Shown piece after piece: positions 120-50,971 of a stretch of DNA of 59,007 nt. Under the pieces are notes generated by a model. That model was not told the origin of the DNA and searched no databases. It saw nothing but the letters and a program-made list of their open reading frames with translations. The stretch's first letter is position 1, and each line of letters begins with the position of its first letter. The DNA is from Syntrophales bacterium (lineage in GTDB: Bacteria; Desulfobacterota; Syntrophia; Syntrophales; UBA2192): contig DASRZY010000280.1 in the NCBI GenBank assembly GCA_035685905.1, positions 1 through 59,007 of the forward strand, given 5' to 3'. Made by a program: the position numbers and the translations under genes.

Positions 120-1160
120 TTATCGGGATTTGAACAGGTTGCGGATCGAGGGGCCGAAGGGTTTTTTCGCAACTCCGGCCTCGGTGATGATGGCCGTGAT
201 GTAGCGATGCGGGGTCACGTCGAAGGCGGGGTTGTAGACTTCGACCTTTTCGGGGGCCGTCCTCACGCCATGGAGGTGTTTCACCTCGTCGCTGTGCCTC
301 TCTTCGATGGGGATGCCGCTGCCGTCGGCAATCGAGCGGTCAATGGTGGAAAGCGGGGCCGCCACGTAGAAGGGGATCCTGTGCTCCCTGGCCAAAACGG
401 CGAGCGAGTAAGTCCCGATCTTGTTGGCCGTGTCGCCGTTTGCTGCGATCCGGTCGGCGCCGACGATCACGAGGTTGACCTTTCCCTGGGCCATGACAAA
501 GCCGGCCATGCTGTCCGTGATCAGGGTCGCCGGGATCCGGTCTTCCATGAGCTCCCAGCAGGTCAGCCTCGCCCCCTGGAGCACGGGACGCGTCTCGTCG
601 GCATAGACGTGTATCGTTTTCCCGTCTTCCCGGGCCGCCCGGATGACACCCAGGGCCGTCCCGTAGCCCGCTGTCGCCAACGCGCCGGCGTTGCAGTGAG
701 TGAGGATGTTGTCGCCGTCGCGGATGAAGGCCTTCCCGTTGAGGCCGATCCGGCGGTTGATCTCGATGTCCTCCTCGCCGATGGCGATGGCCTCTTCGAC
801 AAGGGCCTTTTTCACCGCGGCAATCCCTGCGGGCAGCGCCTCTGCGAAGCGCCGCTGCATGCGCTCGATGGCCCAGAATAGATTTCGCGCCGTGGGGCGC
901 GCCTTCGCGAAGGACTCGCAGAGGTTGTTGAAGGACGCTCGAAATTCGACGACGGGGGTCTCGGGGAGCTGCAGCGTGCCCAGCGCGATGCCCATGGCCG
1001 CGGCAACCCCGATCGCGGGGGCTCCACGGATGGTGAGATCCTTGATGGCGGTGACGACGTCGCGCCAGTCTGTCAGGGTCAGGTAGCGGACCTTTCCCGG
1101 AAGGGCCTTCTGGTCGATGAGGACGACGGCGTCGTCGGCCCAGAGAATGGTTCGGATCAT
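120..1160 (-). CDS. mtnA: S-methyl-5-thioribose-1-phosphate isomerase (eIF-2B-like family)
   Basis: 346-aa ORF. Motifs [22 protein letters not shown] and [18 protein letters not shown] are typical of MtnA. The start ATG overlaps the gatB stop (ATGA). Confidence 0.85.
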
Positions 1161-2590
1161 GATCCCGAAAGCATCTTCTTGAGCAGGTCGTTGACGAGCT
1201 GCGGGTTTGCCTTGCCCTTCGTGAGCTTCATCACCTGGCCCACGAAGAAGGCAAAGAGCTTCTCCTTGCCTGCCCGGTACTCGGCGAGCTGCGCCGGGTT
1301 TTTCGCCATGGCCTCCTCGATGGCCCCTACAACGGCCCCCTCGTCGGTGATCTGGGTGAGGCCCTTCTCCTTGACGATGTCTGCGGGCTTCTTGGACGAC
1401 TTGTACATCTCCTCGAAGACTTCCTTGGCGATCTTGCCGCTGATGGTCCCGTCCTCGATGAGGTTGATCATCTGGGCCACGTGGTCGGGGGAAACGGGGG
1501 ATTCCTTGATGTCGCGCTTCTGCTCGTTGAGATAGCGGAGCAGATCGCCCATGACCCAGTTGCTGACGATCTTGGGCTTGCCGCAGAGTTTCACCGTCTC
1601 TTCATAAAAGTCGGCCAGGGCCCGGGTGGTCGTGAGCACGCTTGCGTCATAGACCGGGATGCCGTACTGCGCAACGAAGCGGTCCTGTTTCTCCAGCGGC
1701 AGCTCAGGGAGCGCCCTGCGGACCTCCTCGATCCACTCGCTCGAGATCATGATGGGCACGAGGTCCGGGTCGGGGAAGTAGCGGTAGTCGTGGGCTTCCT
1801 CCTTGCTGCGCATGGAGTGGGTCTGCCCCTGGGCGTCGTCCCAGAGGCGGGTCTCCTGGACGACCTCGCCGCCGCTCTCCAGGATGTACTGCTGGCGCTT
1901 GACCTCGTACTCGAGGGCCCTCTGGACATTGCGGAAGGAGTTCATGTTCTTGAGCTCCGCCCGGGTGCCGAAGGCCGCTTCGCCCTTCGGACGGATGGAG
2001 ACGTTGGCATCGCAGCGAAACGACCCTTCTTCCATGTTGCCGTCGCAGATCTCGAGGTAGACGAGAATATCGCGCAGCCTGCGCAGGTACTCGCCTGCCT
2101 CCTCGGGGCTTCGCATGTCGGGCTCGCTCACGATCTCGATGAGGGGCACGCCCGTGCGGTTGAAGTCCACGTAGCTCCAGGGGTTGCGCTCATCGTGGAT
2201 GAGCTTGCCGGCGTCTTCCTCCATGTGGATCCGGGTGATGCCGATCCGTTTCTTCCCGCCGTTGAGCACGATGTCGATGTGGCCATGCTCGGCCAGCGGG
2301 TGGGCGTACTGGGAGATCTGGTAGCCCTTGGGAAGATCGGGGTAGAAGTAGTTCTTCCGGGCGAAGTTCTCGTACGCGTTGATGCTGCAGTTGGTGGCAA
2401 GCCCCATCCTGATGGTGAACTCCACGACCTTCCGGTTCAGGACGGGGAGCACTCCCGGCATGCCCAGACAGATCTGGCAGGTGTGTTCGTTGGGCCCGGC
2501 CCCGAATTTCGTGGAGCAGCCGCAGAATATCTTGGAGTCGGTCAGAAGCTGGGCGTGAACCTCCAGCCCGATGACGGTTTCGTAAGCCAT
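1157..2590 (-). CDS. gatB: Asp/Glu-tRNA amidotransferase subunit B
   Basis: Homology starts at [25 protein letters not shown]. The upstream 190+ aa of the 671-aa track ORF are R/P/G-rich and overlap gatA in another frame. The ATG at 2590 overlaps the gatA stop (TAATG). Product is 477 aa. Confidence 0.95.
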
Positions 2591-4047
2591 TAGAGTTTCG
2601 GCCTCCTTCGTTCGATTCCGGAATGTTGCTCGTAGGCGTGGGCGACCTGCAGGAGCTTTCCCTCCTGGAAGTGGCCCGCCTGGAACTGGACCCCGATGGG
2701 CAGGCCCCCCTGCGTGTACCCGCAGGGAACAGAGATGCCCGGGATGCCCGCGAGATTCGTCGAGATCGTAAAAATGTCCGAGAGATACATCTGCAGCGGG
2801 TCGTCCATCTTCTCGCCGATCTTGAAGGCGGGCGTGGGGGTCGTGGGGGTCAGGATCACGTCGCAGGTCTTGAAGGCTTCCTGGAAGTCGCGCTTGATCA
2901 GGGTGCGCACCTGGGAGGCTTTCTTGTAGTAGGCGTCGTAGTATCCCGACGACAGGGCGTAGGTCCCGATCATGATGCGGCGCTTCACCTCGGGGCCGAA
3001 GCCCTGCGAGCGCGTCTTCTTGTACATCTCCATGAGGTCTCGCCCGTCGGTCGAGCGGTAGCCGTACTTCACGCCGTCGTAGCGGGCAAGGTTGGAGCTC
3101 GCCTCGGCCGGCGCGATGATGTAGTAGACCGCAAGGCAGTACTGCGTGTGGGGAAGCGAGATCGCGACGCACTTTGCGCCGAGGCCCTCGATGACCTGGA
3201 TCGTCCTTTTCACTGCGGCGTCGACCTCGGCGTCGATGCCCTCGATGAAGTACTCCTTGGGGATCCCAACGGTGAAGCCCTTGATGTCCTTGCCGATAAA
3301 GCTGCGATAGTCGGGGACTTCCGTGGGCACCGACGTGGACTCCATGGGATCGTAGCCGGCGATGGCATTCAGCATGATGGCCGAGTCCTCCACGTCCTTC
3401 GTGAAGGGGCCGATCTGGTCAAGCGACGAGGCAAAGGCGACGAGCCCGTAGCGCGAGACGCGCCCGTAAGTGGGCTTGAGGCCGACAACACCGCACAGCG
3501 CCGCGGGCTGGCGGATGGAGCCCCCCGTGTCGGAGCCCGTCGCGGCGATGCATTCGTCGGCCGCCAGGGCCGCAGCGGAGCCTCCGCTGGAGCCTCCGGG
3601 TATGCGCTCCAGGTCCCAGGGGTTGCGGGTGACGCCGAAATAAGAGGTTTCCGTGGAGGAACCCATGGCGAACTCGTCCATGTTCGTCTTGCCGACGAAT
3701 ACGGCCCCCTCGTCACGCAGCTTCTTCACCACCGTGCCGTCATAGGGCGGCACGAAGTTGTGCAGGATATGCGAGCCGCAGGTTGTGCGGTATCCTCTCG
3801 TGCACATGATGTCCTTGAGCGCGATGGGGATGCCGGTGAGCGGCCTGATGTTTCCCTTGCCGATCTCACTGTCGGCCTTTTTCGCTCCCTCGAAGGCGTA
3901 TTCCTTCATCATCGTGGTGAAGGAGCGGACCCGGTCCTCGACGGCATCGATGCGCTTGAAAACGTCCGTCACGATCTCCGTGGACGTGACTTCCTTCTTT
4001 TTGATCTTGTCCTGTAACTCGTGTATCGTCAGTTCATTCAGTCCCAT
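2590..4047 (-). CDS. gatA: Asp/Glu-tRNA amidotransferase subunit A (amidase signature)
   Basis: Amidase signature [14 protein letters not shown] prefer the ATG at 4047 ([11 protein letters not shown]), which has GGAG upstream; the track start at 4059 is a TTG. Confidence 0.95.
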
Positions 4048-4104
4048 ACTTGACTCCAAACTCTTTCCTTTTTGCCTGGTCCCTGCACCCCGGTCCCCGG
4101 TCCC

Positions 4105-4392
4105 TTATTCAATGACCTTCGGTACCCGGTAGCAGTTGCCGCTGTCGTCGGGGGCGTTGGCCAGTGATAGCTCCGGGGGGAGCGATTCCCAGACAACGTC
4201 CTCCCGGAAGGCGTTCTGGATGGCAATGGCGTGCGTCTCGGGCTCGACGCCCGTCGTGTCCACTTCGTTGAGTTTCTCCATGTAGAGAAGGATATTGTTC
4301 AGCTGGATGGTGAATTTCTCCTTTTCCTCTTCGCTGAACTCGAGCCGCGCCAGATGGGCCACGTATTCAACCTGATCCTTCGTGATCTTCAC
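4105..4392 (-). CDS. gatC: Asp/Glu-tRNA amidotransferase subunit C
   Basis: 95 aa, MKITKDQVEYVAHLARLEFSEEEKEKF. GTG start with GGAGG 8 nt upstream. Lies directly upstream of gatA. Confidence 0.9.
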   Translation of the reverse strand: MKITKDQVEYVAHLARLEFSEEEKEKFTIQLNNILLYMEKLNEVDTTGVEPETHAIAIQNAFREDVVWESLPPELSLANAPDDSGNCYRVPKVIE

Positions 4393-4460
4393 TCTTCAAT
4401 CCTCCAAGTAATGAAACCGCTTCATCGCGAAGCGGCATTCGATTTCCCTGTTTTCGTTAC

Positions 4461-4486
4461 CCTTTACCCTGGACCCTGAACCCTTT
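4461..4486 (-). repeat. dispersed 26-nt repeat (AAAGGGTTCAGGGNCCAGGGTA..), minus-strand copy
   Basis: The reverse complement, AAAGGGTTCAGGGTCCAGGGTAAAGG, matches 32130-32155 at 24 of 26 positions. Confidence 0.8.
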
Positions 4487-4505
4487 GGCCCGCCGCGAAG
4501 CGGCA

Positions 4506-5564
4506 TTATTGAAAGCACTTCCAGTATGGCTTGATCTGGCCGATCACCGAATCAATCGTCCGGTTGATGGACGCGTCGGCCTCGCTCTCGTGGCGCCTCA
4601 GATCCGCCTCCGTCACGCGGGTGGCGCTGCTCATTTCGTTGAGTACCACCCTGATGCCGTCCGTGAGCCCCCCGAGGTGATAACCGCCCTCGAGGACGGC
4701 AACGAACTTTCCGCCGCAGCATTCGTCGGCGATGTCCATGAGCACCCGGGCAAGCATCCCGAAGCCCGACGGTGTCACCTTCATGCCTCCCAGGGGATCC
4801 CGGAAGTAGATGTCGAAGCCCGCCGACAGCAGGATGATCTCGGGCATGTAATCGAATGCAAGGGGCTGGAGCACCCGGCGGAAAATCCGGAGATACTCGG
4901 CATCGCCGGGGCCTGTCCGCAGGGGCACATTCACCGTGAACCCCGTCCCATCGCCCCGGCCGATTTCCTGGAGGCTCCCGGTCCCGGGGTAGTAGGGAAA
5001 CTGGTGGGTCGAGAAATAGACGACCCGGGGATCCTCGTAGAAGGAATGCTGGGTGCCGTTCCCATGATGGAGGTCCCAGTCGACAATGAGGACCCGCCTC
5101 ATCTTGTGAACCTTGATGGCGTGCATCGCCCCGATGGCGACGTTATTGAAGATGCAAAAACCTGCTGCCCGGTTTGCCTCTGCGTGGTGGCCGGGCGGCC
5201 GGACGAAGGCAAAGGCGTTGCGCAGATCGCCCTTCACGACACCGTCGACTGCATTCAGAAACCCTCCAACGGCAAGCTTGGCGATCTCGTAGGACTCGGC
5301 GGAGGCCTCCGTGTCCGGATCGAGGTACGTATGGTCCTTTCCCGCAGACTGGGCAATCATCTTCACGTAGGAGTGCTTGTGGATCATCTCGATCTCTTCG
5401 TCAAGAGCGACCCGCGGTTTCACTTCCACGAATTTCCCAGCCATTTCAGGGCTTTCGAGCATCTTGTAGATGGATTCGAGCCGCTTGGGGGATTCGGGGT
5501 GGTAATGGCCCGTCTCGTGACGGAGGTACCGGTAATCCTTTACGATTCCAGTCGCCGAAGCCAT
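4506..5564 (-). CDS. histone deacetylase-family (AcuC/class II HDAC-like) amidohydrolase
   Basis: Motifs RPPGHHAE, FCIFNNVAIG and DWDLHHGNGTQ. I prefer the start at MASATGIV (ATG 5564), which has GGGAG upstream. Confidence 0.85.
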   Translation of the reverse strand: MASATGIVKDYRYLRHETGHYHPESPKRLESIYKMLESPEMAGKFVEVKPRVALDEEIEMIHKHSYVKMIAQSAGKDHTYLDPDTEASAESYEIAKLAVGGFLNAVDGVVKGDLRNAFAFVRPPGHHAEANRAAGFCIFNNVAIGAMHAIKVHKMRRVLIVDWDLHHGNGTQHSFYEDPRVVYFSTHQFPYYPGTGSLQEIGRGDGTGFTVNVPLRTGPGDAEYLRIFRRVLQPLAFDYMPEIILLSAGFDIYFRDPLGGMKVTPSGFGMLARVLMDIADECCGGKFVAVLEGGYHLGGLTDGIRVVLNEMSSATRVTEADLRRHESEADASINRTIDSVIGQIKPYWKCFQ

Positions 5565-5658
5565 AAGGGACTCCCTTCGGGGTGAGATCAGAAGGGATTC
5601 ATTACCACACAATCCCTTAAAAATCAAAAGGATTCCCTCTCGGGGACGGTCAAAAGCC

Positions 5659-5687
5659 TTGACAATGGGGATGACAAACTATATTTA
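5659..5687 (+). promoter_or_regulatory. sigma70-like promoter candidate for tatA
   Basis: TTGACA (5659-5664), a 17-nt spacer, then TATTTA (5682-5687), about 30 nt upstream of the tatA GTG. Confidence 0.4.
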
Positions 5688-5718
5688 GTTATAATTACGC
5701 AATTTCCGAGGTGTTGCC

Positions 5719-6024
5719 GTGTTCGGAATCGGCATGCAGGAACTGATCATCATTCTCGTCGTGGCGCTCATCTTCATCGGGCCCAAAAAGCTGCCCGATC
5801 TTGCCAAGGCCCTGGGCAAGGGGGTTGCCCAGTTCAAGAATGCCATGGACGACGTGAAGGGCACCTTCGACGAAGGCATCAAGAAGGAGATGACCCAGGT
5901 AAAGGATTCCATTCTCGAGGACAAACCCGAAGTCAAGACGAAGGGAAATGAAGGGGAGACGACAGAACAGAAGCCTGTCGATCCTTACATAGCGGCGGAA
6001 GAGAAGAAAGACAAACCTGCATGA
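5719..6024 (+). CDS. tatA: twin-arginine translocase TatA/TatE/TatB-family protein
   Basis: N-terminus MFGIGMQELIIILVVALIFIGPKKLPDLAKALGKG is canonical for TatA. GTG start with GAGGTG upstream. Confidence 0.85.
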   Translation: MFGIGMQELIIILVVALIFIGPKKLPDLAKALGKGVAQFKNAMDDVKGTFDEGIKKEMTQVKDSILEDKPEVKTKGNEGETTEQKPVDPYIAAEEKKDKPA

Positions 6025-6125
6025 GGATCAAGGCGCAAGGATAAAGGCTAAAGGCCTCGGGTAACAGACGCGAGCCGTTTCTTGCCATAGGTCAGTTGCC
6101 TTTCGCCCTTCGCCATTTTTTTATT

Positions 6126-6884
6126 ATGACGGAACCCGAAAACGACAAGATGCCACTCACCTCCCACCTGGAGGAGCTGCGCAAGAGGCTTATCCGCAGC
6201 ATGATCGCCATCGGTGTGGCCTTCCTGGGCTGTTACGCTTTTGTTGAGGACCTCTTCCGGATCATCGCACAGCCCCTGATCAGCGTTATGCCGGCAAACG
6301 GCTACCTGGTATACACGGGACTTCCCGAGGCCTTTTTCACCTACATCAAGGTCGCCTTTTATGTGGGGCTGTTCATCGCCAGCCCCTTCGTGCTCTACCA
6401 GATCTGGAAGTTCATATCACCGGGCCTCTTCCCGAAAGAAAAGAAATTCGTGGCCCCCTTCGTCATCACCTCCACGCTTCTGTTTGTCGGCGGCGTCTGC
6501 TTCGGCTATTTCCTGGTGCTCCCGCCGGCATACAAGTTCTTCCTGGAATTTTCGACGGACTATCTCAAGCCCATGCTCTCCATTCGCGAATACATTTCGC
6601 TCACACTGAAACTCCTGCTCGCATTTGGGATTATTTTCGAAATCCCTGTCTTTCTTTTCTTTATGACGAAGATCGGCCTGGTGACGCCGCGCAAGCTGGC
6701 GAAGACACGTCGCTACGCCATCGTGGTCTGCTTCATCATCGCGGCGATCATCACGCCCACGCCGGATGCCTTTACGCAGTGCATGATGGCGATCCCCATG
6801 GTCATCCTCTACGAGGTCGGAATCATCGTCTCCAAGCTCGCCGTGCGAAAGAAAGACGATGCGGACAACGAACAGCCTGAATGA
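6126..6884 (+). CDS. tatC: twin-arginine translocase subunit TatC
   Basis: PLTSHLEELRKRLIRS followed by six predicted TM segments. Start taken at MTEPENDK (ATG 6126), in frame with the track ORF. Confidence 0.9.
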   Translation: MTEPENDKMPLTSHLEELRKRLIRSMIAIGVAFLGCYAFVEDLFRIIAQPLISVMPANGYLVYTGLPEAFFTYIKVAFYVGLFIASPFVLYQIWKFISPGLFPKEKKFVAPFVITSTLLFVGGVCFGYFLVLPPAYKFFLEFSTDYLKPMLSIREYISLTLKLLLAFGIIFEIPVFLFFMTKIGLVTPRKLAKTRRYAIVVCFIIAAIITPTPDAFTQCMMAIPMVILYEVGIIVSKLAVRKKDDADNEQPE

Positions 6885-8914
6885 AACCGAATAACCGATC
6901 CCTGAAAAGAGTCATTGTCAAGCGAGCCCGCCGGAGCCGTTTTTTCCGCATGCTTTTTTCCGCCATGATCGTCCTGGGGCTGCTGGCATGTATAGGCGCT
7001 GCGGGACTGGTGGCGTACCTGGCCTATGAATCCCCCAGCGTGGATGCCCTCAAGGACTACCGGCCGAACACGACGACCCGTGTTTACTCGGACAAAAACG
7101 AACTCGTGGATTCCTTTTTTGCCGAAGACCGCCACGTGGTCCCCATTTCGGAGATCCCCGACGTGGTCATCAAGGCCTTTGTCGCGGGCGAGGACGCCCG
7201 ATTTTTCCAGCACGAGGGTCTTGATCTCATCGGCATCCTGCGGGCCTTCGTCAAGAACATGATCGCCGGCGAAATCGTCCAGGGCGGCAGCACCATCACC
7301 CAGCAGGTGGCCCGCTCGCTTTACCTTTCGCCGGAGAGGACCTTCACGCGCAAGATCCGGGAAGCGATCCTCGCATACAAGATCGACCGCTACCTGAAAA
7401 AGACCGAGATCCTCGAGCTCTACCTCAACCACATTTACCTCGGCCACGGGGCCTACGGGATCGAGGCTGCGGCCCAGAGCTACTTCGGCAAGTCGAGCCG
7501 GAACCTGACGCTCTCCGAAGCGGCCGTGCTCGCGGGGCTGCCCAAGGCGCCCAGCCGGTTCTCCCCCTATGTGAACATGGAGCGGGCACGCCAGCGTCAG
7601 GCCTACGTTCTCACCCGGATGCAGGAAGACGGCTACATCACGCTGGCCGCCCGGGACAAGGCCCTGAAGGAACCCATCAAGCTCATCTCGTCGAAGCCCC
7701 GGGAGAAGATCGCCCCCTACTTCACGGAGAACGTACGGCGCTACATCCTGGAGAAGTACGGCGCCGACGCCCTCTACCGGGAGGGGCTCGAGATCTACAC
7801 GACGATCAACGTGGAGATGCAGAAGGCGGCAAACGAGGCCGTGGAGCGGGGCCTCAAGGAGATGGAGACGCGGGAGAAATTCGCGCCGGGCGAGCTCCAG
7901 GGAGCGCTTTTGTGCATGGATGTGAGGACCGGCGAGATCAAGGCCATGGTGGGGGGACGGGATTACAAGAAAAGCGAGTTCAACCGGGCCACCCAGGCCA
8001 GGCGCCGGCCCGGGTCCTCTTTCAAGCCCTTCGTCTACACGGCCGCCTTCGACAAAGGGATGACGCCGGCATCGGTGATCATCGACTCGCCCATCATCTT
8101 CAATGACGCCGCACGGGGCGAGTGGAAGCCGCAGAACTTCGAGCACAAATTTTTCGGTCCCACGACACTGCGGACGGCGCTCACGTTTTCGCGCAACGTC
8201 GTCACCGTCAAGGTTCTCCAGGAGGCAGGGCTTGCCTACGTCATCGACTACGCCCACAACATGGGCATCAACTCGCCTCTTACCCGCGACCTGACTCTCG
8301 CCCTGGGGACTTCAACCGTCACCCTTCAGGAGATGATCCGCGGCTACGGCGTGCTTGCCAATAGCGGCAAGCGGGTCGAGCCCTACTTCATCCGCAAGAT
8401 CGTCGACCGGCACGGACACATCCTCGAGGAGCAGGCGCCCCAGGTCGAACAGGCCATTGACCCGCGCATTGCCTTTCTCACCACATCGGTGCTGCAGAAC
8501 GTCATCCAGGAGGGAACGGGCGAGCGGGTAAAGGCCATCGGCAGGCCGGTGGCCGGCAAAACGGGGACCACGGACGACTACTTCGACGCCTGGTTCATCG
8601 GCTACACGCCGTCTCTGGTGGCCGGCGTGTGGGTGGGCTTCGACGCGGAGAAGACCATGGGACGCTCCGGCGTGGGCGGCCGGGCTGCGGCCCCCATCTG
8701 GCTCTACTTCATGGAGCAGGCCCTGGCGGGAAAACCGGTGGAGGCCTTCACCGCGCCCGAGGGGATCGTCTTTGCCCGCATCGACCCCAAGACGGGCCTC
8801 CTCGCAGGCCCCGGGACGAAGGATTCCGTTTTCGAGAGCTTCCTCGAGGGCACAGCGCCGAAAGAGTACTCTGCCGCAACAAGCGAGGACTCCGGCGAGG
8901 CCGTGAGGCCCTAG
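6881..8914 (+). CDS. mrcA: penicillin-binding protein 1A (bifunctional transglycosylase/transpeptidase)
   Basis: GT51 motifs EDARFFQHEGLD, GGSTITQQ and RKIREA. Transpeptidase motifs SSFKP and KTGTT. N-terminal TM anchor. ATGA overlap with tatC. Confidence 0.9.
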   Translation: MKPNNRSLKRVIVKRARRSRFFRMLFSAMIVLGLLACIGAAGLVAYLAYESPSVDALKDYRPNTTTRVYSDKNELVDSFFAEDRHVVPISEIPDVVIKAFVAGEDARFFQHEGLDLIGILRAFVKNMIAGEIVQGGSTITQQVARSLYLSPERTFTRKIREAILAYKIDRYLKKTEILELYLNHIYLGHGAYGIEAAAQSYFGKSSRNLTLSEAAVLAGLPKAPSRFSPYVNMERARQRQAYVLTRMQEDGYITLAARDKALKEPIKLISSKPREKIAPYFTENVRRYILEKYGADALYREGLEIYTTINVEMQKAANEAVERGLKEMETREKFAPGELQGALLCMDVRTGEIKAMVGGRDYKKSEFNRATQARRRPGSSFKPFVYTAAFDKGMTPASVIIDSPIIFNDAARGEWKPQNFEHKFFGPTTLRTALTFSRNVVTVKVLQEAGLAYVIDYAHNMGINSPLTRDLTLALGTSTVTLQEMIRGYGVLANSGKRVEPYFIRKIVDRHGHILEEQAPQVEQAIDPRIAFLTTSVLQNVIQEGTGERVKAIGRPVAGKTGTTDDYFDAWFIGYTPSLVAGVWVGFDAEKTMGRSGVGGRAAAPIWLYFMEQALAGKPVEAFTAPEGIVFARIDPKTGLLAGPGTKDSVFESFLEGTAPKEYSAATSEDSGEAVRP

Positions 8915-38918: not shown

Positions 38919-39461
38919 CTACTTCCCGGCTTTCTTCTTCGCCTCCGGTTTCGCCTTCCCTTTCCCTTTGGTCGCGACCTTTTCCAGCTCGCTCTCCAGC
39001 ATGATCACCTTCTTGAGTTCCTCAAAAAGGATCTTGTTCTTGGGCCGATCTTTAATGTTGTGAATGTCGATGTAGCGGATGATCCCGAACTTGTCGAGGA
39101 CGAATATCGCCCGCTCAGAGAAGCCTTCCTTCCGCTTCACGCCGTATTTCTTCGCAACGGCAGCCAGGGGGCCGAAGTCGCTCAGGAGGGGAAACGAAAT
39201 CCCTCCGAGACTCTTTGCCCACGCTTTCAGGCAGGGGACATGGTCGACGCTGATGCCCAGGACCTGGGCATTGAGCTTCTCGAACTTGGCCATATCGGCC
39301 TCGTACGAGGGAAGCTGATTCGTTCAGACCGGTGTCCAGGCCAGGGGGAAGAATGCGATGACAACGGGACCCTTGCCGAGGCATTTGCTCAGAGTCACCT
39401 TCGTGTCGAGATGGCTCGGCAGAGTGAAGTTGGGGGCCTTTTGCCCCACTTTCAACTTCAT
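38919..39461 (-). CDS. peroxiredoxin (AhpC/TSA-Bcp type), putative selenoprotein, TGA at 39326-39324
   Basis: AGGAGG RBS then ATG 39461. Translation is MKLKVGQKAPNFTLPSHL..VVIAFFPLAWTPV-TGA-TNQLPSYEADMAKFEKLNAQVLGISVDH. The TGA is codon 46, at the peroxidatic Cys position, in frame with track ORF 38919..39293. Confidence 0.8.
39276..39314 (-). other. candidate SECIS-like stem-loop
   Basis: On the minus-strand RNA: CUUC-c-CUCG-uacga-GGCC-gauau-GGCC-aaguu-CGAG-AAG. It starts about 10 nt after the UGA. Confidence 0.3.
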
Positions 39462-45467: not shown

Positions 45468-46370
45468 TCAGACACTGATCCTTTTGATATTGAGCTTTGC
45501 GAGGTCCATGACCCCGAGGCCTGCCTTGGCTGCAAGTTTTACGGTATTGAGATCGCTGCCCTTCATCCCGAACAGGGTGGCACCGAAGGAGTCGATGGCC
45601 ACCTGGTCCGTTCCCACGACAACCGTGTCGAGCCTCTTCACGTCGTCCAGGTCCCCTCCGGTGGGGCCGTTTGCCGTGAGGATACGGACGGCGTCCAGCA
45701 CGGTGAGCGTCGGCTTGATGACCCGGATCAGATCCACGAGACTCTCGTCGATGCGCTGGTGGACACGGAACCGCACGCCCCCCATGACGCCCATCCAGTT
45801 CTTCATGGCCAGTGTGAGAGTCGTCAGGCTGTGGGTCTTGGCGATGGGGATGTTGATCACCTTGTCGGCCTCGAAGATGTCGTTGTAGAGGGGCCAGGTC
45901 TTCAGCGCCGTCCCGTTGAGCTGGACCTCCCGGTACTTGCGGTTGTCCATGAAGATCATCTCGGCCCCGGCGGCAGCGGCAGCGTCGGCGATGCCGCTCT
46001 GCTTGTAGCAGCGCCTGGCATCGCTCACAGGGTTGTCCATGACCTTGACCTTCTTCGCCCCCGATTCGTAGCACAGCTTTGCCAGGGTGCCGACAACTTC
46101 GGGATTCGTGGTGGCGGCATAGGCAGGGGTGCGGTCCCAGCCGATATTGGGTTTGAGGACGACGACATCGCCCTTGGAGACGAAGCGCTTCATGCCTCCC
46201 ATGGCATCCAGCGCAGAGCGGACGATCTGCGGGGTCGAGGCCCCTTTCGCGACGACAAGATCCGGCCCCTGTGCGGCCTCGACGATCCGTCCCAAACCGG
46301 GAAGACCCATTGGAAGCACAAGCCCTGCCGATGCTGCGGCAGTCATTTTCAGAAATTTGCGCCTGTTCAT
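45468..46370 (-). CDS. DUF362 domain protein with twin-arginine (Tat) signal
   Basis: MNRRKFLKMTAAASAGLVLP Tat motif. DUF362 core (VVLKPNIGW..., INIPIAKTH). RBS GGAG before ATG 46370. Confidence 0.8.
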   Translation of the reverse strand: MNRRKFLKMTAAASAGLVLPMGLPGLGRIVEAAQGPDLVVAKGASTPQIVRSALDAMGGMKRFVSKGDVVVLKPNIGWDRTPAYAATTNPEVVGTLAKLCYESGAKKVKVMDNPVSDARRCYKQSGIADAAAAAGAEMIFMDNRKYREVQLNGTALKTWPLYNDIFEADKVINIPIAKTHSLTTLTLAMKNWMGVMGGVRFRVHQRIDESLVDLIRVIKPTLTVLDAVRILTANGPTGGDLDDVKRLDTVVVGTDQVAIDSFGATLFGMKGSDLNTVKLAAKAGLGVMDLAKLNIKRISV

Positions 46371-46390
46371 CACACACTCCTGGAATCGAT

Positions 46391-46438
46391 GTGAAGCGCC
46401 CGCCCACAGGCGGGGCTTGCGGGACGCGCCCCCGGTCA
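46391..46438 (+). repeat. structured dispersed repeat, copy 2
   Basis: Same orientation as copy 1 (25464-25513) and the same 30-nt core. Sits in the divergent intergenic region between the DUF362 gene and the Fe-S gene. Confidence 0.8.
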
Positions 46439-46619
46439 ACAAAACTATCACGACCACAGGGTCGAGGCCAAGAAAAAAGGAGATTTCACTTTCCGGGGGT
46501 CATACCGCGTCCGCCTCCCCCGCCTGGGTGAGGGCGAAACGGAAGACAAGGTCTTCTCGGGACGAGGGAAACGAAGCGGATGGGTGGTTTTCAGCAGCCC
46601 ATTGTGATATGTTTGGCGC

Positions 46620-47909
46620 ATGGGCCATATCGCCAACCCCGACAGGGAGTATCGTCTTCTCCAGCAGCGCCTCGACCGCAACGTGACGGGTGCGCCCGAC
46701 TCGCCCCACTTCATCGAGATCCTGAAACTTCTTTTTTCTCCGGAAGAGGCCTCCCTCGCGCGGCAGATCCCGACGCGCTTCGTCACCGTGGGACGGCTTG
46801 CAAGGAAGCTGGGTATGGAGCCCGCCGCTCTCGATGACTGGGTCACCGAGATGGCTCTCCGGGGGCTTGTCATCGACATCGGAAGGGGCGGGCGCCGTTA
46901 CGTGTCGCTTGCTCCCGTCGTCATCGGTTTCTTCGAGTACACCTTCATGCGAGCCGATGACAAACTCCCCTTGAAGGAGCTGGCGCGGCTCTTCGATGCC
47001 TATATGCACGGGAATGACCGTTTCGCCCGGTCCGTCTTTACGGCCGATACGCAGATCGGCCGATCGCTTGTCCGCGAGGAGGCCCTGTCCGAGGGGGACC
47101 ACACGGAGATCCTGGACTGGGAGCGAGCGACCCGGCTCATCGAGTCGGCCTCGTCGGCATCGGTTTCGCTCTGCGCCTGCCGGCACAAGGCCTCCCATCT
47201 CGGGAAGGCCTGCGACAGGCCCATGGAGAACTGCATTGCCCTCAACATGGGGGCGGAGATCCTGGTGAAGAGCGGCTTTGCCCGCCCCGTTTCGACGGCG
47301 GAGGCGCTCACCATTCTCGAGCGGTGCAAGGATCTGGGTCTTGCCCAGACAGGAGACAATGTCCAGCAAAACGCGGCCTACATCTGCAACTGCTGCGGTT
47401 GCTGCTGCGAGATGATGAAGGCCATCCGGGTCATGGGCGTGCGCAATGCGATTGTCACCTCGAACTGGACCGTCGATATCGACGGCGGGAAATGCAGGGG
47501 CTGTGGCAAGTGTGCAAAACTCTGCCCTGTAGATCTGATCGACATGGTCCCCGATGCAGCCCTCGACGGGCAGAAGCCCGTGAAGAGGGCCCGTCACCAG
47601 GGCGAGTTCTGCCTCGGCTGCGGGGTCTGCTGCACAGGCTGCAAGACGGGGGCGATCCGCATGAAGGCCCGTCCCAAGCGGGTGTTCACGCCCGAGACGA
47701 CCTTCGACAAGATCATCGCCATGGCCATCGAGCGCGGCAAGCTCGCCAGCCTCGTGTTCGAGGGCCACGAACACTGGGGCTGGCGCGCCTTCGGTCGCGT
47801 TGCGGCGGTTCTGGAAAATACACCGCCGGCCCGGGCCCTCCTGGCAATCGAACCCCTCCGTTCCGCCTTTTTCGAGGCCGTGGTGCGAAAGGCCAAGCCG
47901 CCCGCCTGA
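46620..47909 (+). CDS. Cys-rich Fe-S protein with 2x[4Fe-4S] ferredoxin domain
   Basis: CACRHK...C, CNCCGCCCEMM, CRGCGKCAKLCP and CLGCGVCCTGC motifs. No precise family assigned. Confidence 0.75.
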   Translation: MGHIANPDREYRLLQQRLDRNVTGAPDSPHFIEILKLLFSPEEASLARQIPTRFVTVGRLARKLGMEPAALDDWVTEMALRGLVIDIGRGGRRYVSLAPVVIGFFEYTFMRADDKLPLKELARLFDAYMHGNDRFARSVFTADTQIGRSLVREEALSEGDHTEILDWERATRLIESASSASVSLCACRHKASHLGKACDRPMENCIALNMGAEILVKSGFARPVSTAEALTILERCKDLGLAQTGDNVQQNAAYICNCCGCCCEMMKAIRVMGVRNAIVTSNWTVDIDGGKCRGCGKCAKLCPVDLIDMVPDAALDGQKPVKRARHQGEFCLGCGVCCTGCKTGAIRMKARPKRVFTPETTFDKIIAMAIERGKLASLVFEGHEHWGWRAFGRVAAVLENTPPARALLAIEPLRSAFFEAVVRKAKPPA

Positions 47910-47974
47910 CACCTCGCAACCCATCAACCCTTCAACCGTTCCCCGCAAAATCATCATAAGAGAAGGAGGTTCCC

Positions 47975-48514
47975 ATGATGACTCGACAATTCAGCGTAGG
48001 GCTTCTCCTCCTGATCGCGCTGCTGATGAACCCGCTGACGCTCCAGGCAGCCGGTCAGCAGGATCCCCTGGTCGGCAAGAAGACCGTCAATTTTACCCTT
48101 TCCTCGACGGAGGACCGGGCAATCAACTACGGATCGGAATACTACGACAAGGCTTTCCTGATTATCACGTTCTTCCCGGCGGCCTACACCCCCGTTTGAA
48201 CTGGCGAAATGCAGGGACACCAGGCGAAACTGGCTGCCTACGGGTCCCTCAACGCCCAGGTCGTGGGCGTCAGCCGAGACGACGTGCAGACCCTCCAATA
48301 CTGGAAAAAACATCTGAGGTTGTCCTTCCCCCTGCTGTCCAACATCTCCGGCTACCTGGGAAACTCCTTTGGTGTCGTGAAGGAGGGAAAGTTCCCCTTT
48401 GAGCGGCGAACCGTCATTATCGACAAGAAGGCAACCATCCACTACGTGCGGGACGGGTCGCCCGATTATGACGAGATCCTCAGGGTGTTGAAAGACCTCA
48501 ACGAAGGCAAATAG
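47975..48514 (+). CDS. exported peroxiredoxin (AhpC/TSA-Bcp type), putative selenoprotein, TGA at 48197-48199
   Basis: Track ORFs 47975..48199 and 48209..48514 share a frame. The junction reads FFPAAYTPV-TGA-TGEMQGHQAKL..VVGVSRDD. Signal peptide ends LQAAG. Confidence 0.8.
48211..48237 (+). other. candidate SECIS-like stem-loop
   Basis: GCAG-ggaca-CCAG-gcgaaa-CTGG-CTGC. It starts 11 nt after the TGA. Confidence 0.35.
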
Positions 48515-48577
48515 AATTGTGTGGATTTTGGCGAGGGGAATCATTAAAATATCTCAAATTGAAAAGGAGGTTTCCCC

Positions 48578-48886
48578 ATGAGAATGAAATCGCCGCTTCT
48601 GGTGCTGATCACCGTGCTGCTTGTCGTCCTGATCGGCGCCTCTTCCGCGATGGCCAAGATGCGGACCGTGCAGGTCATGCTGCCGAACTGCGAGTGACCC
48701 TTCACCCGGGACAGGGTCAGTTGGACCCTCACAAATGTCGTCAAGACGGAAAAGGTGGAAGTCAACGAGTACTCGCACATCGCGACGATTACCTACGATG
48801 ACGAGAAAACGACCATCGAACAGATTGTCAGCGCCCTCGAAAAGGCAGGCTTCCCGCTCGATGGCCCGCCGAAATTCCTGAATTAA
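48578..48886 (+). CDS. exported MerP/HMA-like ferredoxin-fold protein, putative selenoprotein, TGA at 48695-48697
   Basis: Absent from the ORF track because both halves are under 60 aa. AAAAGGAGG RBS. Translation is MRMKSPLLVLITVLLVVLIGASSAMA-KMRTVQVMLPNCE-TGA-PFTRDRVSWTLTNVVKTEKVEVNEYSHIATITYDDEKTTIEQIVSALEKAGFPLDGPPKFLN, with a beta-alpha-beta-beta-alpha-beta pattern like HMA/MerP. Confidence 0.6.
48713..48729 (+). other. candidate SECIS-like stem-loop
   Basis: AGGGTC-agttg-GACCCT. Six perfect pairs with a G/U-containing loop. It starts 15 nt after the TGA. Confidence 0.4.
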
Positions 48887-48898
48887 CCCGTATCGTCG

Positions 48899-48938
48899 CC
48901 GGGGCGGTGGCCGGTGAAGGCCATCGCCCCGGTTTTTT
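48899..48938 (+). terminator. intrinsic terminator after the selenoprotein pair
   Basis: CCGGGGCG...CGCCCCGG stem followed by TTTTTT. Confidence 0.75.
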
Positions 48939-49006
48939 GCACAATCGCAGACTCATCTTTTTCTAACCGTGATCGCCTCTCTCACTGCGATCACGGCGAG
49001 AATCCC

Positions 49007-49249
49007 ATGGAAGGTTCAACGAGAGAACGGTTCATCCACGCCCTGATACGGTACCAGGAGAAGTTCGGCCAGGACAGGGCGTCGGTTATCCAGGAGAAAC
49101 TCGGGCAGCTCCGGGAGCAGATTGTCGCGGAAAACTCGGCCGATCTGGACTGGTTCCCCGACTGGAAAAAGAGGCAGATCCTCGAATCGCTCTTGGAGAA
49201 GACCTACCTGGGCCTCATCGCTGAAATGGAGCGCGAGAGCCAATCCTAG
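49007..49249 (+). CDS. hypothetical protein (80 aa)
   Basis: Start taken at MEGSTRERF, because the track start at 48914 lies inside the terminator. Helical, no family recognised. Confidence 0.4.
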   Translation: MEGSTRERFIHALIRYQEKFGQDRASVIQEKLGQLREQIVAENSADLDWFPDWKKRQILESLLEKTYLGLIAEMERESQS

Positions 49250-49345
49250 GGACCTGCGTCCCGCTGTCGCCGGGGACTCGCCCGTTCCCGGAGAATCAAC
49301 TTCCCAATCCCTCTTCGTGCCGCTCACAGCCTTCGGGAGGACACC

Positions 49346-50971
49346 ATGGAATTCAGCGTACTCATCGGCGGGGAAGCCGGCCAGGGGATGTTCTCCGTCG
49401 AGCTCGAGCTCTCGGATCTTCTTTCCAGGCTCGGCTACCATTTCTTTGCAACAAAAAACTACATGTCCCGAATCCGGGGAGGCCACAACTTCCACATGAT
49501 CCGCATATCCGACCGGCCGGTGCATGCCCTCAGCGGCAGGCCCTGGGACATGGTCATTGCCCTCGATGACGGCGAGACGGAGCGCCGCCACGGCCGCTCG
49601 CTCCGAGAGGGCGGGATCCTTCTCGGCAACGACAAGGTGAAAGATATCGAAAAGGAGGCTCGCGAGACGTTACAGGACGTCACCGCGTCCAACACGATCC
49701 TTGCGGGGATCATCCTGGCTGTCCTGGGTGCCGATCCGCTGAAGGCGAAAGCATCCGCATCCGATACACCCATGGCAGAGCGCCTGGAAAAGGGCCGGGT
49801 CTTTGCGCAGCGCTGGGGACTCGAGGGGAAAATCCCCGTTTCGGCCAAGGCCGGCGATCACTGCAAGCTCGATGGAAACCAGGCCCTCGCCCTGGGGGCG
49901 CTTCTGGGCGGATGCCAGTTCATGGCCGGTTACCCCATGACGCCCGCCACATCGATCATGCACTACTTCGCCACCGTTGCTGCCGAGTTGCCGGTTCACT
50001 TCGAACAGGCCGAAGACGAGATTGCCGCGATCAATATGGCTCTCGGGGCCTCCTATGCAGGGCTCAGGTCCATGGTCGCCACCGCAGGTGGCGGCTTTGC
50101 CCTCATGACGGAGGCCGTCTCGCTTGCCGGTATGACGGAAACGCCCGTCGTCATCGTCGTTGCACAGCGTCCGGGCCCGGCAACAGGGCTGCCGACGCGG
50201 ACAGAGCAGGGGGATCTCAATTTCGTACTCCATGCGGGACACGGCGAGTTCCCGAGAGTGATCTTCGCCCCGGGATCCATTGAAGAAGCCATCACATTGT
50301 CGCGCCTGAGCTTCGATGTGGCCGACCGCTGGCAGATACCCGTTTTCGTCCTGACGGACCAGTACTTCGCAGACTCCGTCCAGTTCATGGAAGGAAACGC
50401 CCCGACGGCGATGCTGCAGAGGCAGTTCCCCGTCTTCGAGGCCGGGTACCGGCGCTACGCCCTCACGTCCGACGGCGTCTCTCCCCTGACCTTCCCCGGG
50501 CTCTCGGAGGCCCGTATCGAGGCGGACTCCGACGAGCACACCGAGGATGGCAAGATAACCGAGGATCCGGATCTGCGGGCACGCATGGTGGACAAGCGGC
50601 TCCGGAAAATGGACGGGATCGCCATGGAAGCTCTCATGCCGGCCTGTTTCGGCGACCGCAAGGCCGGCACGATCCTCATCTCGTGGGGTTCGAACCGGCT
50701 CATTGTCCAGGAGGCGGTGGAGATCCTCCAGTCTGGAGGGGTGCCGGTCAGCGCCCTTCACTTTGGCCAGGTTTACCCCCTGACGCCGAAGATGGCGAAG
50801 GGGCTTTCGCGCAGGCGCCTGATCTGCATCGAGAACAATGCCACGGGCCAGTTCGCGCAACTGCTCAGGCGAGAGTTGGGCTTGAAGGTGGATCACCTCG
50901 TTCTGAAGTACAACGGAGAGTGTTTCACCGTTGATGAACTGGTTGAGAGGGTTCGAAAGATAATCGGTTGA
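49346..50971 (+). CDS. 2-oxoacid:ferredoxin oxidoreductase, fused gamma-alpha subunit
   Basis: The N-terminal gamma-type domain has GGEAGQG. The alpha domain has GYPMTPAT. The TPP-binding beta subunit follows. Confidence 0.85.
   Translation: MEFSVLIGGEAGQGMFSVELELSDLLSRLGYHFFATKNYMSRIRGGHNFHMIRISDRPVHALSGRPWDMVIALDDGETERRHGRSLREGGILLGNDKVKDIEKEARETLQDVTASNTILAGIILAVLGADPLKAKASASDTPMAERLEKGRVFAQRWGLEGKIPVSAKAGDHCKLDGNQALALGALLGGCQFMAGYPMTPATSIMHYFATVAAELPVHFEQAEDEIAAINMALGASYAGLRSMVATAGGGFALMTEAVSLAGMTETPVVIVVAQRPGPATGLPTRTEQGDLNFVLHAGHGEFPRVIFAPGSIEEAITLSRLSFDVADRWQIPVFVLTDQYFADSVQFMEGNAPTAMLQRQFPVFEAGYRRYALTSDGVSPLTFPGLSEARIEADSDEHTEDGKITEDPDLRARMVDKRLRKMDGIAMEALMPACFGDRKAGTILISWGSNRLIVQEAVEILQSGGVPVSALHFGQVYPLTPKMAKGLSRRRLICIENNATGQFAQLLRRELGLKVDHLVLKYNGECFTVDELVERVRKIIG

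Follow-up and report, generated by a model that had tools for sequence, protein, structure and literature searches.

The 59,007-nt contig DASRZY010000280.1 of a Syntrophales metagenome-assembled genome (MAG; assembly GCA_035685905.1), taken here as a whole and called the window, contains a string of three genes encoding an iron-sulphur (Fe-S) protein, an exported peroxiredoxin with selenocysteine (U) at its active site and an exported protein of the HMA/MerP fold with a C-x-U motif. The two exported proteins are referred to as Prx-U and HMA-U, respectively. The three genes form a lineage-specific string, not a conserved functional module, and the Fe-S gene is no more than a neighbour by position, and this in one genus only. 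In the explanation favoured here, to which we give a probability of about 0.6, the anchor of this lineage-specific string is the HMA-U gene with a promoter-like element of its own, and the functional unit consists of the two selenoproteins. An earlier note on this DNA had regarded the trio as a possible envelope redox or detoxification module using selenocysteine. The two downstream genes are confirmed to be genuine exported selenoprotein genes of the redox/detoxification type, whereas the trio as a functional module was not borne out. The features of the locus are as follows.

46620-47909, + strand: Fe-S protein gene, 429 aa, from the open reading frame (ORF) and its translation
47975-48514, + strand: exported peroxiredoxin gene, 179 aa, with TGA at 48197-48199 read as selenocysteine (U75)
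48201-48259, + strand: stem-loop of the peroxiredoxin gene resembling a selenocysteine insertion sequence (SECIS), directly 3' of the UGA
48520-48550, + strand: conserved block 5' of the HMA-U gene, with an inferred promoter role
48578-48886, + strand: exported HMA/MerP-like protein gene, 102 aa, with TGA at 48695-48697 read as selenocysteine (U40)
48713-48729, + strand: SECIS hairpin of the HMA-U gene, AGGGUC-AGUUG-GACCCU
48898-48939, + strand: intrinsic terminator, a 15-bp G+C-rich stem and a T-run, ending the gene string

Layout and synteny of the gene string

The three genes lie on the same strand with gaps of 65 and 63 nt, and in this respect the coordinates and ORFs agree with the earlier description, except that the HMA-U gene starts at 48578, not 48579. 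The single strong terminator described at the end of the string was also recovered (48898-48933 plus the T-run; -37 kcal/mol, z = -5.0), and no shuffled sequence was equally stable. Neither internal spacer has significant structure (z = +1.7 and -0.16), a terminator scan found no terminator-like site in either of them, and no Rfam family matches positions 46000-49400. The layout is accordingly that expected of an operon, with one strand, short gaps, no internal terminator and a single terminal one. Because no terminator lies between the three genes, it is possible, as far as the sequence can tell, that they share one transcript.

Synteny argues against a conserved trio. An orthologue of the Fe-S protein (84-90% identity) is encoded next to the HMA-U gene in all 13 loci recovered from the genus, and the Prx-U gene lies between the two in 4 of these 13, with which public records agree. 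In one congener (G017) and in all four genomes of the sister genus, the HMA-U gene occupies the same backbone position and the Fe-S gene is absent there. This backbone, common to the family, consists of the polyferredoxin and Tat-DUF362 genes in one direction and, divergently, the HMA-U gene, an 80-aa ORF and the gene for the alpha subunit of a 2-oxoacid:ferredoxin oxidoreductase. The 80-aa ORF between the latter two genes (window 49007-49249, + strand; MEGSTRERFIHALIRYQEKFG...) is retained by the two genera of the family at 35-71% identity, and has no match in Pfam or NCBIfam. More distant Fe-S orthologues (55-66% identity) in Chloroflexota, Phycisphaerae, Hydrogenedentes and other Deltaproteobacteria have neither selenoprotein gene nearby; their neighbours encode a B12-binding radical SAM protein, a URO-D-like protein, a BlaI/M56 pair or a DUF134/NifX-like/Mrp set, where DUF134 was assigned from N-terminal sequence only. 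The earlier note had considered a coupling of the Fe-S protein to the exported selenoproteins and had suggested conservation of the gene neighbourhood as a check, with loss of synteny speaking against its view. The synteny of the trio is largely lost in related genomes, adjacency of the Fe-S and HMA-U genes is confined to one genus, and such coupling as is seen lies between the two selenoproteins.

The HMA-U gene is preceded by a conserved block, TGTGGATTTTGGC, followed by TAAAAT at 48545-48550, with TGGATT at 48522-48527, 17 nt 5' of TAAAAT. This block is kept in all loci of the family (f1), including five (L053-L057) without the Fe-S or peroxiredoxin gene. The block resembles a promoter region belonging to the gene itself, and judging from this sequence conservation, separate transcription of the HMA-U gene is also probable. 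Since the block is conserved where the other two genes are missing and no terminator intervenes where they are present, readthrough from a promoter of the Fe-S gene is possible and a separate start for the HMA-U gene is likely. A regulon defined by this block was considered and rejected: the exact motif occurs once in the genome, and matches with up to two mismatches look like chance. The resident anchor gene on the family backbone encodes the exported MerP-fold C-x-U selenoprotein. Added to it are the Fe-S gene upstream, in the genus, and the Prx-U gene in between, in a subset of species, and transcription from the Fe-S promoter may run through all three genes.

The two exported selenoproteins

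Each of the two downstream genes has one in-frame TGA at the position of an active-site Cys, with the frame conserved on both sides. In the HMA-U gene, the SECIS hairpin begins 15 nt past the UGA and carries GU in its apical loop; a hairpin with a G/U loop is found about 15-20 nt past the TGA in every HMA homologue examined, and compensatory changes occur in four of the seven consensus pairs. The stem-loop of the Prx-U gene (-26.8 kcal/mol, z = -3.45) was not matched in stability by any of 200 shuffles, and another family of the order, f7, retains the long stem in a different sequence (GGGAC/GUCCC versus GGGGCA/UGCCUC). The machinery for selenocysteine is encoded in the genome, where selA (611 bits), selB (373 bits) and selD (376 bits) all score over their cut-offs. 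The selD gene (G000:C127:3448-4377) also carries one in-frame TGA, so that selenophosphate synthetase is itself a selenoprotein here.

The gene for tRNA-Sec (selC) was not found by whole-genome ARAGORN in the 320 contigs of the assembly, in which 44 tRNA genes were called; a lone match to the Rfam tRNA-Sec model, barely over the cut-off, was discarded, as ARAGORN calls it tRNA-Ser(CGA). This absence would fit an alternative in which the TGA codons are real stops and both genes are split or decayed ORFs. Such an alternative can practically be dismissed, considering that dozens of genomes have a single TGA flanked on either side by open, conserved frame, that the SECIS hairpins covary and that selA, selB and selD are present. 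The MAG is 100% complete by marker genes and fragmented, and because 15 of 17 congeners have the tRNA-Sec gene (76 bits), its absence is read as an assembly gap.

Prx-U has a signal peptide ending in an AxA-type cleavage site (..LTLQA/AG). As had been noted earlier, U occupies the peroxidatic position: U75, in FFPAAYTPV-U-TGE, corresponds to the Cys of the PxxxTxxC motif, and the protein matches the Pfam AhpC-TSA model (PF00578) with 80.9 bits against a gathering cut-off of 26. Apart from this U75, Prx-U contains no Cys and hence no resolving residue, which makes it a 1-selenocysteine enzyme that would need an outside reductant. Its orthologues are 56-62% identical, with one TGA in each of 11 matches, and P68, T72, U75, R144 and R145 are invariant among them. 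Peroxiredoxins with a TxxU motif constitute a major prokaryotic selenoprotein family (PMC2398784). Prx-U shares with this family, including PrxU of Eubacterium acidaminophilum, the AhpC/TSA fold, selenocysteine at the PxxxTxxC position and a SECIS element 3' of the UGA; it scores 36 bits against the NCBIfam PrxU equivalog model NF040737, below the cut-off of 270. Unlike members of the TxxU/PrxU family, Prx-U is exported, lacks a resolving Cys, is nearly always encoded beside an HMA-fold selenoprotein and, in the searches made, is found in Syntrophales only. It is present in 9 of 151 genomes of the order, every copy having one TGA, and a profile search of species-representative genomes gave 17 Prx-U loci, all from Syntrophales; a pattern search for distant orthologues likewise returned Syntrophales only, with a sensitivity limited by one of its two patterns having U as Cys.

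The window encodes a second selenocysteine peroxiredoxin at 38919-39461 on the - strand. Its translation has no signal peptide, contains U46 in FFPLAWTPV-U-TNQ, ends in a Lys-rich tail and includes one other Cys (C77).

HMA-U also begins with a signal peptide, an N-terminal hydrophobic helix ending in an AxA-type site (..SSAMA/K), and its motif is C38-E-U40-P within the string LPNCEUP. The AlphaFold2 (AF2) model (pLDDT 83) shows a beta-alpha-beta-beta-alpha-beta fold; C38 and U40 are located in its beta1-alpha1 loop, the place of CxxC in MerP and CopZ. The top Foldseek match is oxidised MerP (1osd; TM score 0.87, root-mean-square deviation 1.4 Å), followed by copper chaperones. At the sequence level, the Pfam HMA model (PF00403) is matched with 26.1 bits (cut-off 24.8) over the C-terminal half of the domain only, and the best NCBIfam match is MerP (TIGR02052), with 49.1 bits below the cut-off of 92.55. 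The HMA-U family occurs in 71 of the 151 sampled genomes of the order, with one in-frame TGA in nearly all of about 90 matches. The metal-binding motif GMTCxxC is not found in it: HMA-U has P-N-C-E-U-P, and a sister subfamily has C-x-x-U, in which, according to the alignment, selenocysteine is shifted by one position relative to C-x-U without an insertion or deletion. Natural Cys variants also exist, with CRPC in L069 and CKTC in L130. The C-x-x-U subfamily (L064-L073, gene at about 1500-1800) is found at a conserved position in many families of the order, like a core housekeeping gene; its usual neighbours, named from N-terminal sequence only, are maf, yggS and a manC-like gene (mannose-1-phosphate guanylyltransferase).

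The earlier note had called HMA-U a MerP-like C-x-U protein, which holds for the fold and not for membership of a mer system. Like MerP, HMA-U has a signal peptide and a single HMA domain, and its Cys/selenocysteine pair takes the place of the Cys pair in the beta1-alpha1 loop; unlike MerP, it has one residue between the pair, C-x-U instead of GMTCxxC. No match to the MerT model was found in the fragmented genome, and the best match to the MerA model (375 bits) is below the cut-off of 454. With neither merT nor a true merA found in the genome, a mer-operon reading was ruled out. Unlike the situation in mer operons, no merT, merA or merR partner was found for HMA-U, and redox genes rather than genes for metal transport lie beside it.

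The C-x-U HMA family can hardly be seen in public protein sets, which is a gap in annotation. Only two full-length homologues were found, both among metagenome gene calls of the Joint Genome Institute (P0125 and P0126), under the names 'mercuric ion binding protein' and 'copper chaperone CopZ', and the motif reads CEW in them. This reading is an annotation artefact of gene calling with TGA as Trp. A 'MerP' selenoprotein has already been recorded in the Global Ocean Sampling (GOS) selenoproteome (PMC2398784, table 2), and MerT-type and UxxU metal-binding selenoproteins are catalogued as NCBIfam models (NF045683 and NF041115) and have been discussed (10.1101/2022.07.06.499078). The table of a 2022 review (PMC9312934), as searched by term, gave no HMA or MerP entry. 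A limited literature search found no report of the pairing of Prx-U with HMA-U or of the C-x-U variant, which is not proof of absence. Both kinds of selenoprotein are already known; what is new, to a modest degree, is the C-x-U variant and the pairing.

The recurrent pair and its possible function

The two selenoprotein genes recur together within Syntrophales. An HMA-fold gene is immediately adjacent to the Prx-U gene in 13 of the 14 loci with enough flanking sequence (out of 17 Prx-U loci), and three contexts can be distinguished. In the present genus, the Prx-U gene lies upstream of the resident HMA-U gene. In family f7, the order is cydA, cydB, a gene for an Lpd-like FAD disulfide reductase, HMA(C-E-U) and Prx-U (L076, G027:C1:1409000-1424000, positions 3230-8350; also L078, L085 and L137), which looks like an oxygen/peroxide defence cluster. 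The FAD disulfide reductase of this cluster lacks the C-terminal Cys pair of MerA and scores best as Lpd-like, under all cut-offs, which also speaks against a mer-operon reading. In a third context, on public Syntrophales MAG contigs (L130-L132, about 650-6500), a gene for an HMA protein with C-K-T-U, or with Cys for U in L130, is followed by the Prx-U gene. Upstream of these lie genes for a Tat-signal protein of the metallo-beta-lactamase fold and an OpuAC-like protein; downstream lie those for an exported 234-aa protein, a CoA-disulfide-reductase/rhodanese fusion and a TrmO-like protein. This setting hints at periplasmic sulfur or persulfide chemistry.

Prx-U and HMA-U are probably a peroxide-defence pair of the periplasm or envelope. 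In the mechanism proposed, both would be exported via the Sec secretion pathway, and Prx-U would reduce peroxides at U75, drawing on an outside reductant. The Cys/selenocysteine pair of HMA-U would, by inference, either recycle Prx-U through a thiol/selenol relay or let the protein act beside it as a periplasmic soft-metal/redox buffer. In Caulobacter, the envelope peroxiredoxin PprX is reduced through thioredoxin-fold proteins of the ScsB/TlpA type. The likeness to this system is that an exported peroxiredoxin needs a periplasmic reductant encoded nearby. The differences are that the candidate partner here has the HMA fold, not the thioredoxin fold, that both partners use selenocysteine, and that no DsbD, ScsB or CcdA membrane electron transporter is seen next to the Prx-U/HMA-U pair. 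The oxygen-sensitive syntrophs of the order Syntrophales inhabit digesters, peat and sediments, and the pair may bear on their handling of peroxide at the envelope, which is poorly known. If the proposal is true, selenium and the metallochaperone fold would both be put to unusual use in combining a MerP-fold protein with a peroxiredoxin free of a resolving residue, outside the cytoplasm.

Several observations weigh against such a functional pair. Of the 151 genomes, 71 have HMA-U and 9 have exported Prx-U, and most HMA-U genes have no peroxiredoxin gene nearby, so there must be a function of the HMA protein for which no peroxiredoxin is needed. The C-x-x-U subfamily is usually found among genes of the housekeeping type with no redox partner. 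In the sister genus, which is the exception to the pairing, the Prx-U gene is not beside the HMA-U gene and has ferritin-like and AhpC-like neighbours. Related genomes are not independent, and they show no more than about three separate events of juxtaposition. Moreover, we know of no HMA-fold protein that serves as a peroxiredoxin reductant. A stronger form of the proposal, in which HMA-U is a dedicated thiol/selenol reductant of Prx-U and the two constitute a new two-selenoprotein system of periplasmic peroxide detoxification in the strictly anaerobic Syntrophales, with a metallochaperone fold turned into a redox shuttle, is unlikely to be right; electrons for it might be supplied by neighbouring membrane modules, the NapH-like polyferredoxin and the Tat-DUF362 protein in this family or cytochrome bd oxidase and the disulfide reductase in another.

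An alternative of some weight, though on balance a doubtful one, is that HMA-U is simply a periplasmic binder of soft metals (Hg, Cu, Cd) like MerP or CopZ, and that Prx-U is an unrelated stress enzyme sharing its regulation or location. Selenocysteine raises affinity for soft metals, MerP provides both the best structural and the best NCBIfam match to HMA-U, catalogue entries exist, as mentioned above, for metal-binding selenoproteins of the MerP, MerT and UxxU types, and the majority of HMA-U genes have no Prx-U gene beside them. However, neither merT nor a true merA was found in the genome, no gene for a metal transporter or a MerR-type protein lies beside any HMA-U locus examined, and the canonical GMTCxxC is replaced by C-x-U with shortened spacing. 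From the side of Prx-U, adjacency in 13 of 14 loci is hard to explain by co-regulation alone.

The Fe-S protein and the divergent region

The first gene of the string encodes, as described earlier, a 429-aa Fe-S protein with a Cys-rich motif and two ferredoxin-type motifs, and the translation agrees. The Cys-rich motif is ICNCCGCCCEMM at residues 255-266, and the two CxxCxxCxxxC motifs span C292-C302 and C331-C341. All sequence-profile matches in Pfam, NCBIfam and the PDB are of the Fer4/ferredoxin type and fall within residues 285-350. Among 33 diverse homologues, 18 Cys residues are invariant, 8 in the ferredoxin motifs and 10 upstream (C185-x-C187-R-H, C198, C205 and C256-N-C258-C259-G-C261-C262-C263). 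The AF2 model, of moderate quality (pLDDT 66.7), contains a winged-helix-like N-terminus (about residues 29-97), an alpha/beta region with extra Cys at the strand ends, and a 2x[4Fe-4S] ferredoxin domain (285-350). Foldseek gave matches at the level of domains only, to ferredoxin domains and to winged helix-turn-helix (HTH) domains of the ArsR/SmtB/HlyU type; the latter have a probability of about 1.0 and weak E-values of 0.05-0.1, from a model that is only moderate. No HTH family was matched in Pfam or NCBIfam, and no counterpart of the whole protein was found in the PDB, Pfam or NCBIfam. In the model, residues 29-97 resemble ArsR/SmtB/HlyU regulators in fold and residues 285-350 polyferredoxins (FwdF, MvhB and the ferredoxin domains of HdrA), both at the domain level only; the central region with ten Cys (CxCRH...C...C...CNCCGCCC) has no described counterpart.

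The Fe-S protein is cytoplasmic and a member of a widespread uncharacterised family with more than 4000 homologues, which retain about 60% identity across phyla. This identity, together with the changing gene neighbours, favours an enzyme or electron carrier over a local regulator. Most likely, the protein is an independent redox enzyme or electron carrier that is co-expressed here by position and not by shared function. A large and highly conserved family with 18 invariant Cys is a worthwhile target for study, to whose role the present locus offers little clue. Shorter paralogues (about 360-380 aa) are found in dozens of copies in some Syntrophales genomes (L111, L112; G033:C6); their neighbours, judged by N-terminal sequence only, look like genes for CoA-transferase, FAD-oxidoreductase, SDR, thiolase-like/beta-oxidation-type and RND-exporter proteins. 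As far as such assignments go, these settings would suggest a role as a general electron-transfer partner in degradative pathways.

A true functional operon, in which the Fe-S protein senses redox or metal stress by way of its ArsR-like winged helix and its clusters and regulates the selenoprotein genes, or feeds electrons to the exported selenoproteins, is improbable. It would account for the single strand, short gaps and lone terminal terminator, for the adjacency of the Fe-S and HMA-U genes in 13 of 13 loci of the genus and for the ArsR/SmtB/HlyU matches of the N-terminal domain, and ArsR-type regulators often adjoin genes for metal-binding proteins. On the other hand, this adjacency does not extend beyond the genus, and genomes without this Fe-S orthologue still conserve both HMA-U and the motif upstream of it. 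Conservation of the Fe-S protein across phyla amid unrelated neighbours fits an enzyme better. A role as local regulator was judged unlikely on account of these varying neighbours, the weak Foldseek E-values with no HTH family matched, and the putative recognition helix (EPAALDDWVTEM), which is acidic, not basic. As for electron supply, a cytoplasmic protein cannot reduce periplasmic proteins directly.

Upstream of the Fe-S gene, the divergent pair of Tat-DUF362 and NapH/NapG-like polyferredoxin genes is present as reported earlier. The 'structured repeat' described between them and the string (46391-46438) was overstated: it consists of one local hairpin, CCCGCC-CACA-GGCGGG, and the intergenic region as a whole shows no gain in folding over shuffled sequences (z = -1.0 and +0.46). 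On a UBA2192 contig from a congener (L102, 1889-4001), the DUF362 and Fe-S genes are about 2.1 kb apart, where the window has about 250 nt. This difference suggests another insertion at the DUF362/Fe-S junction, which is variable.

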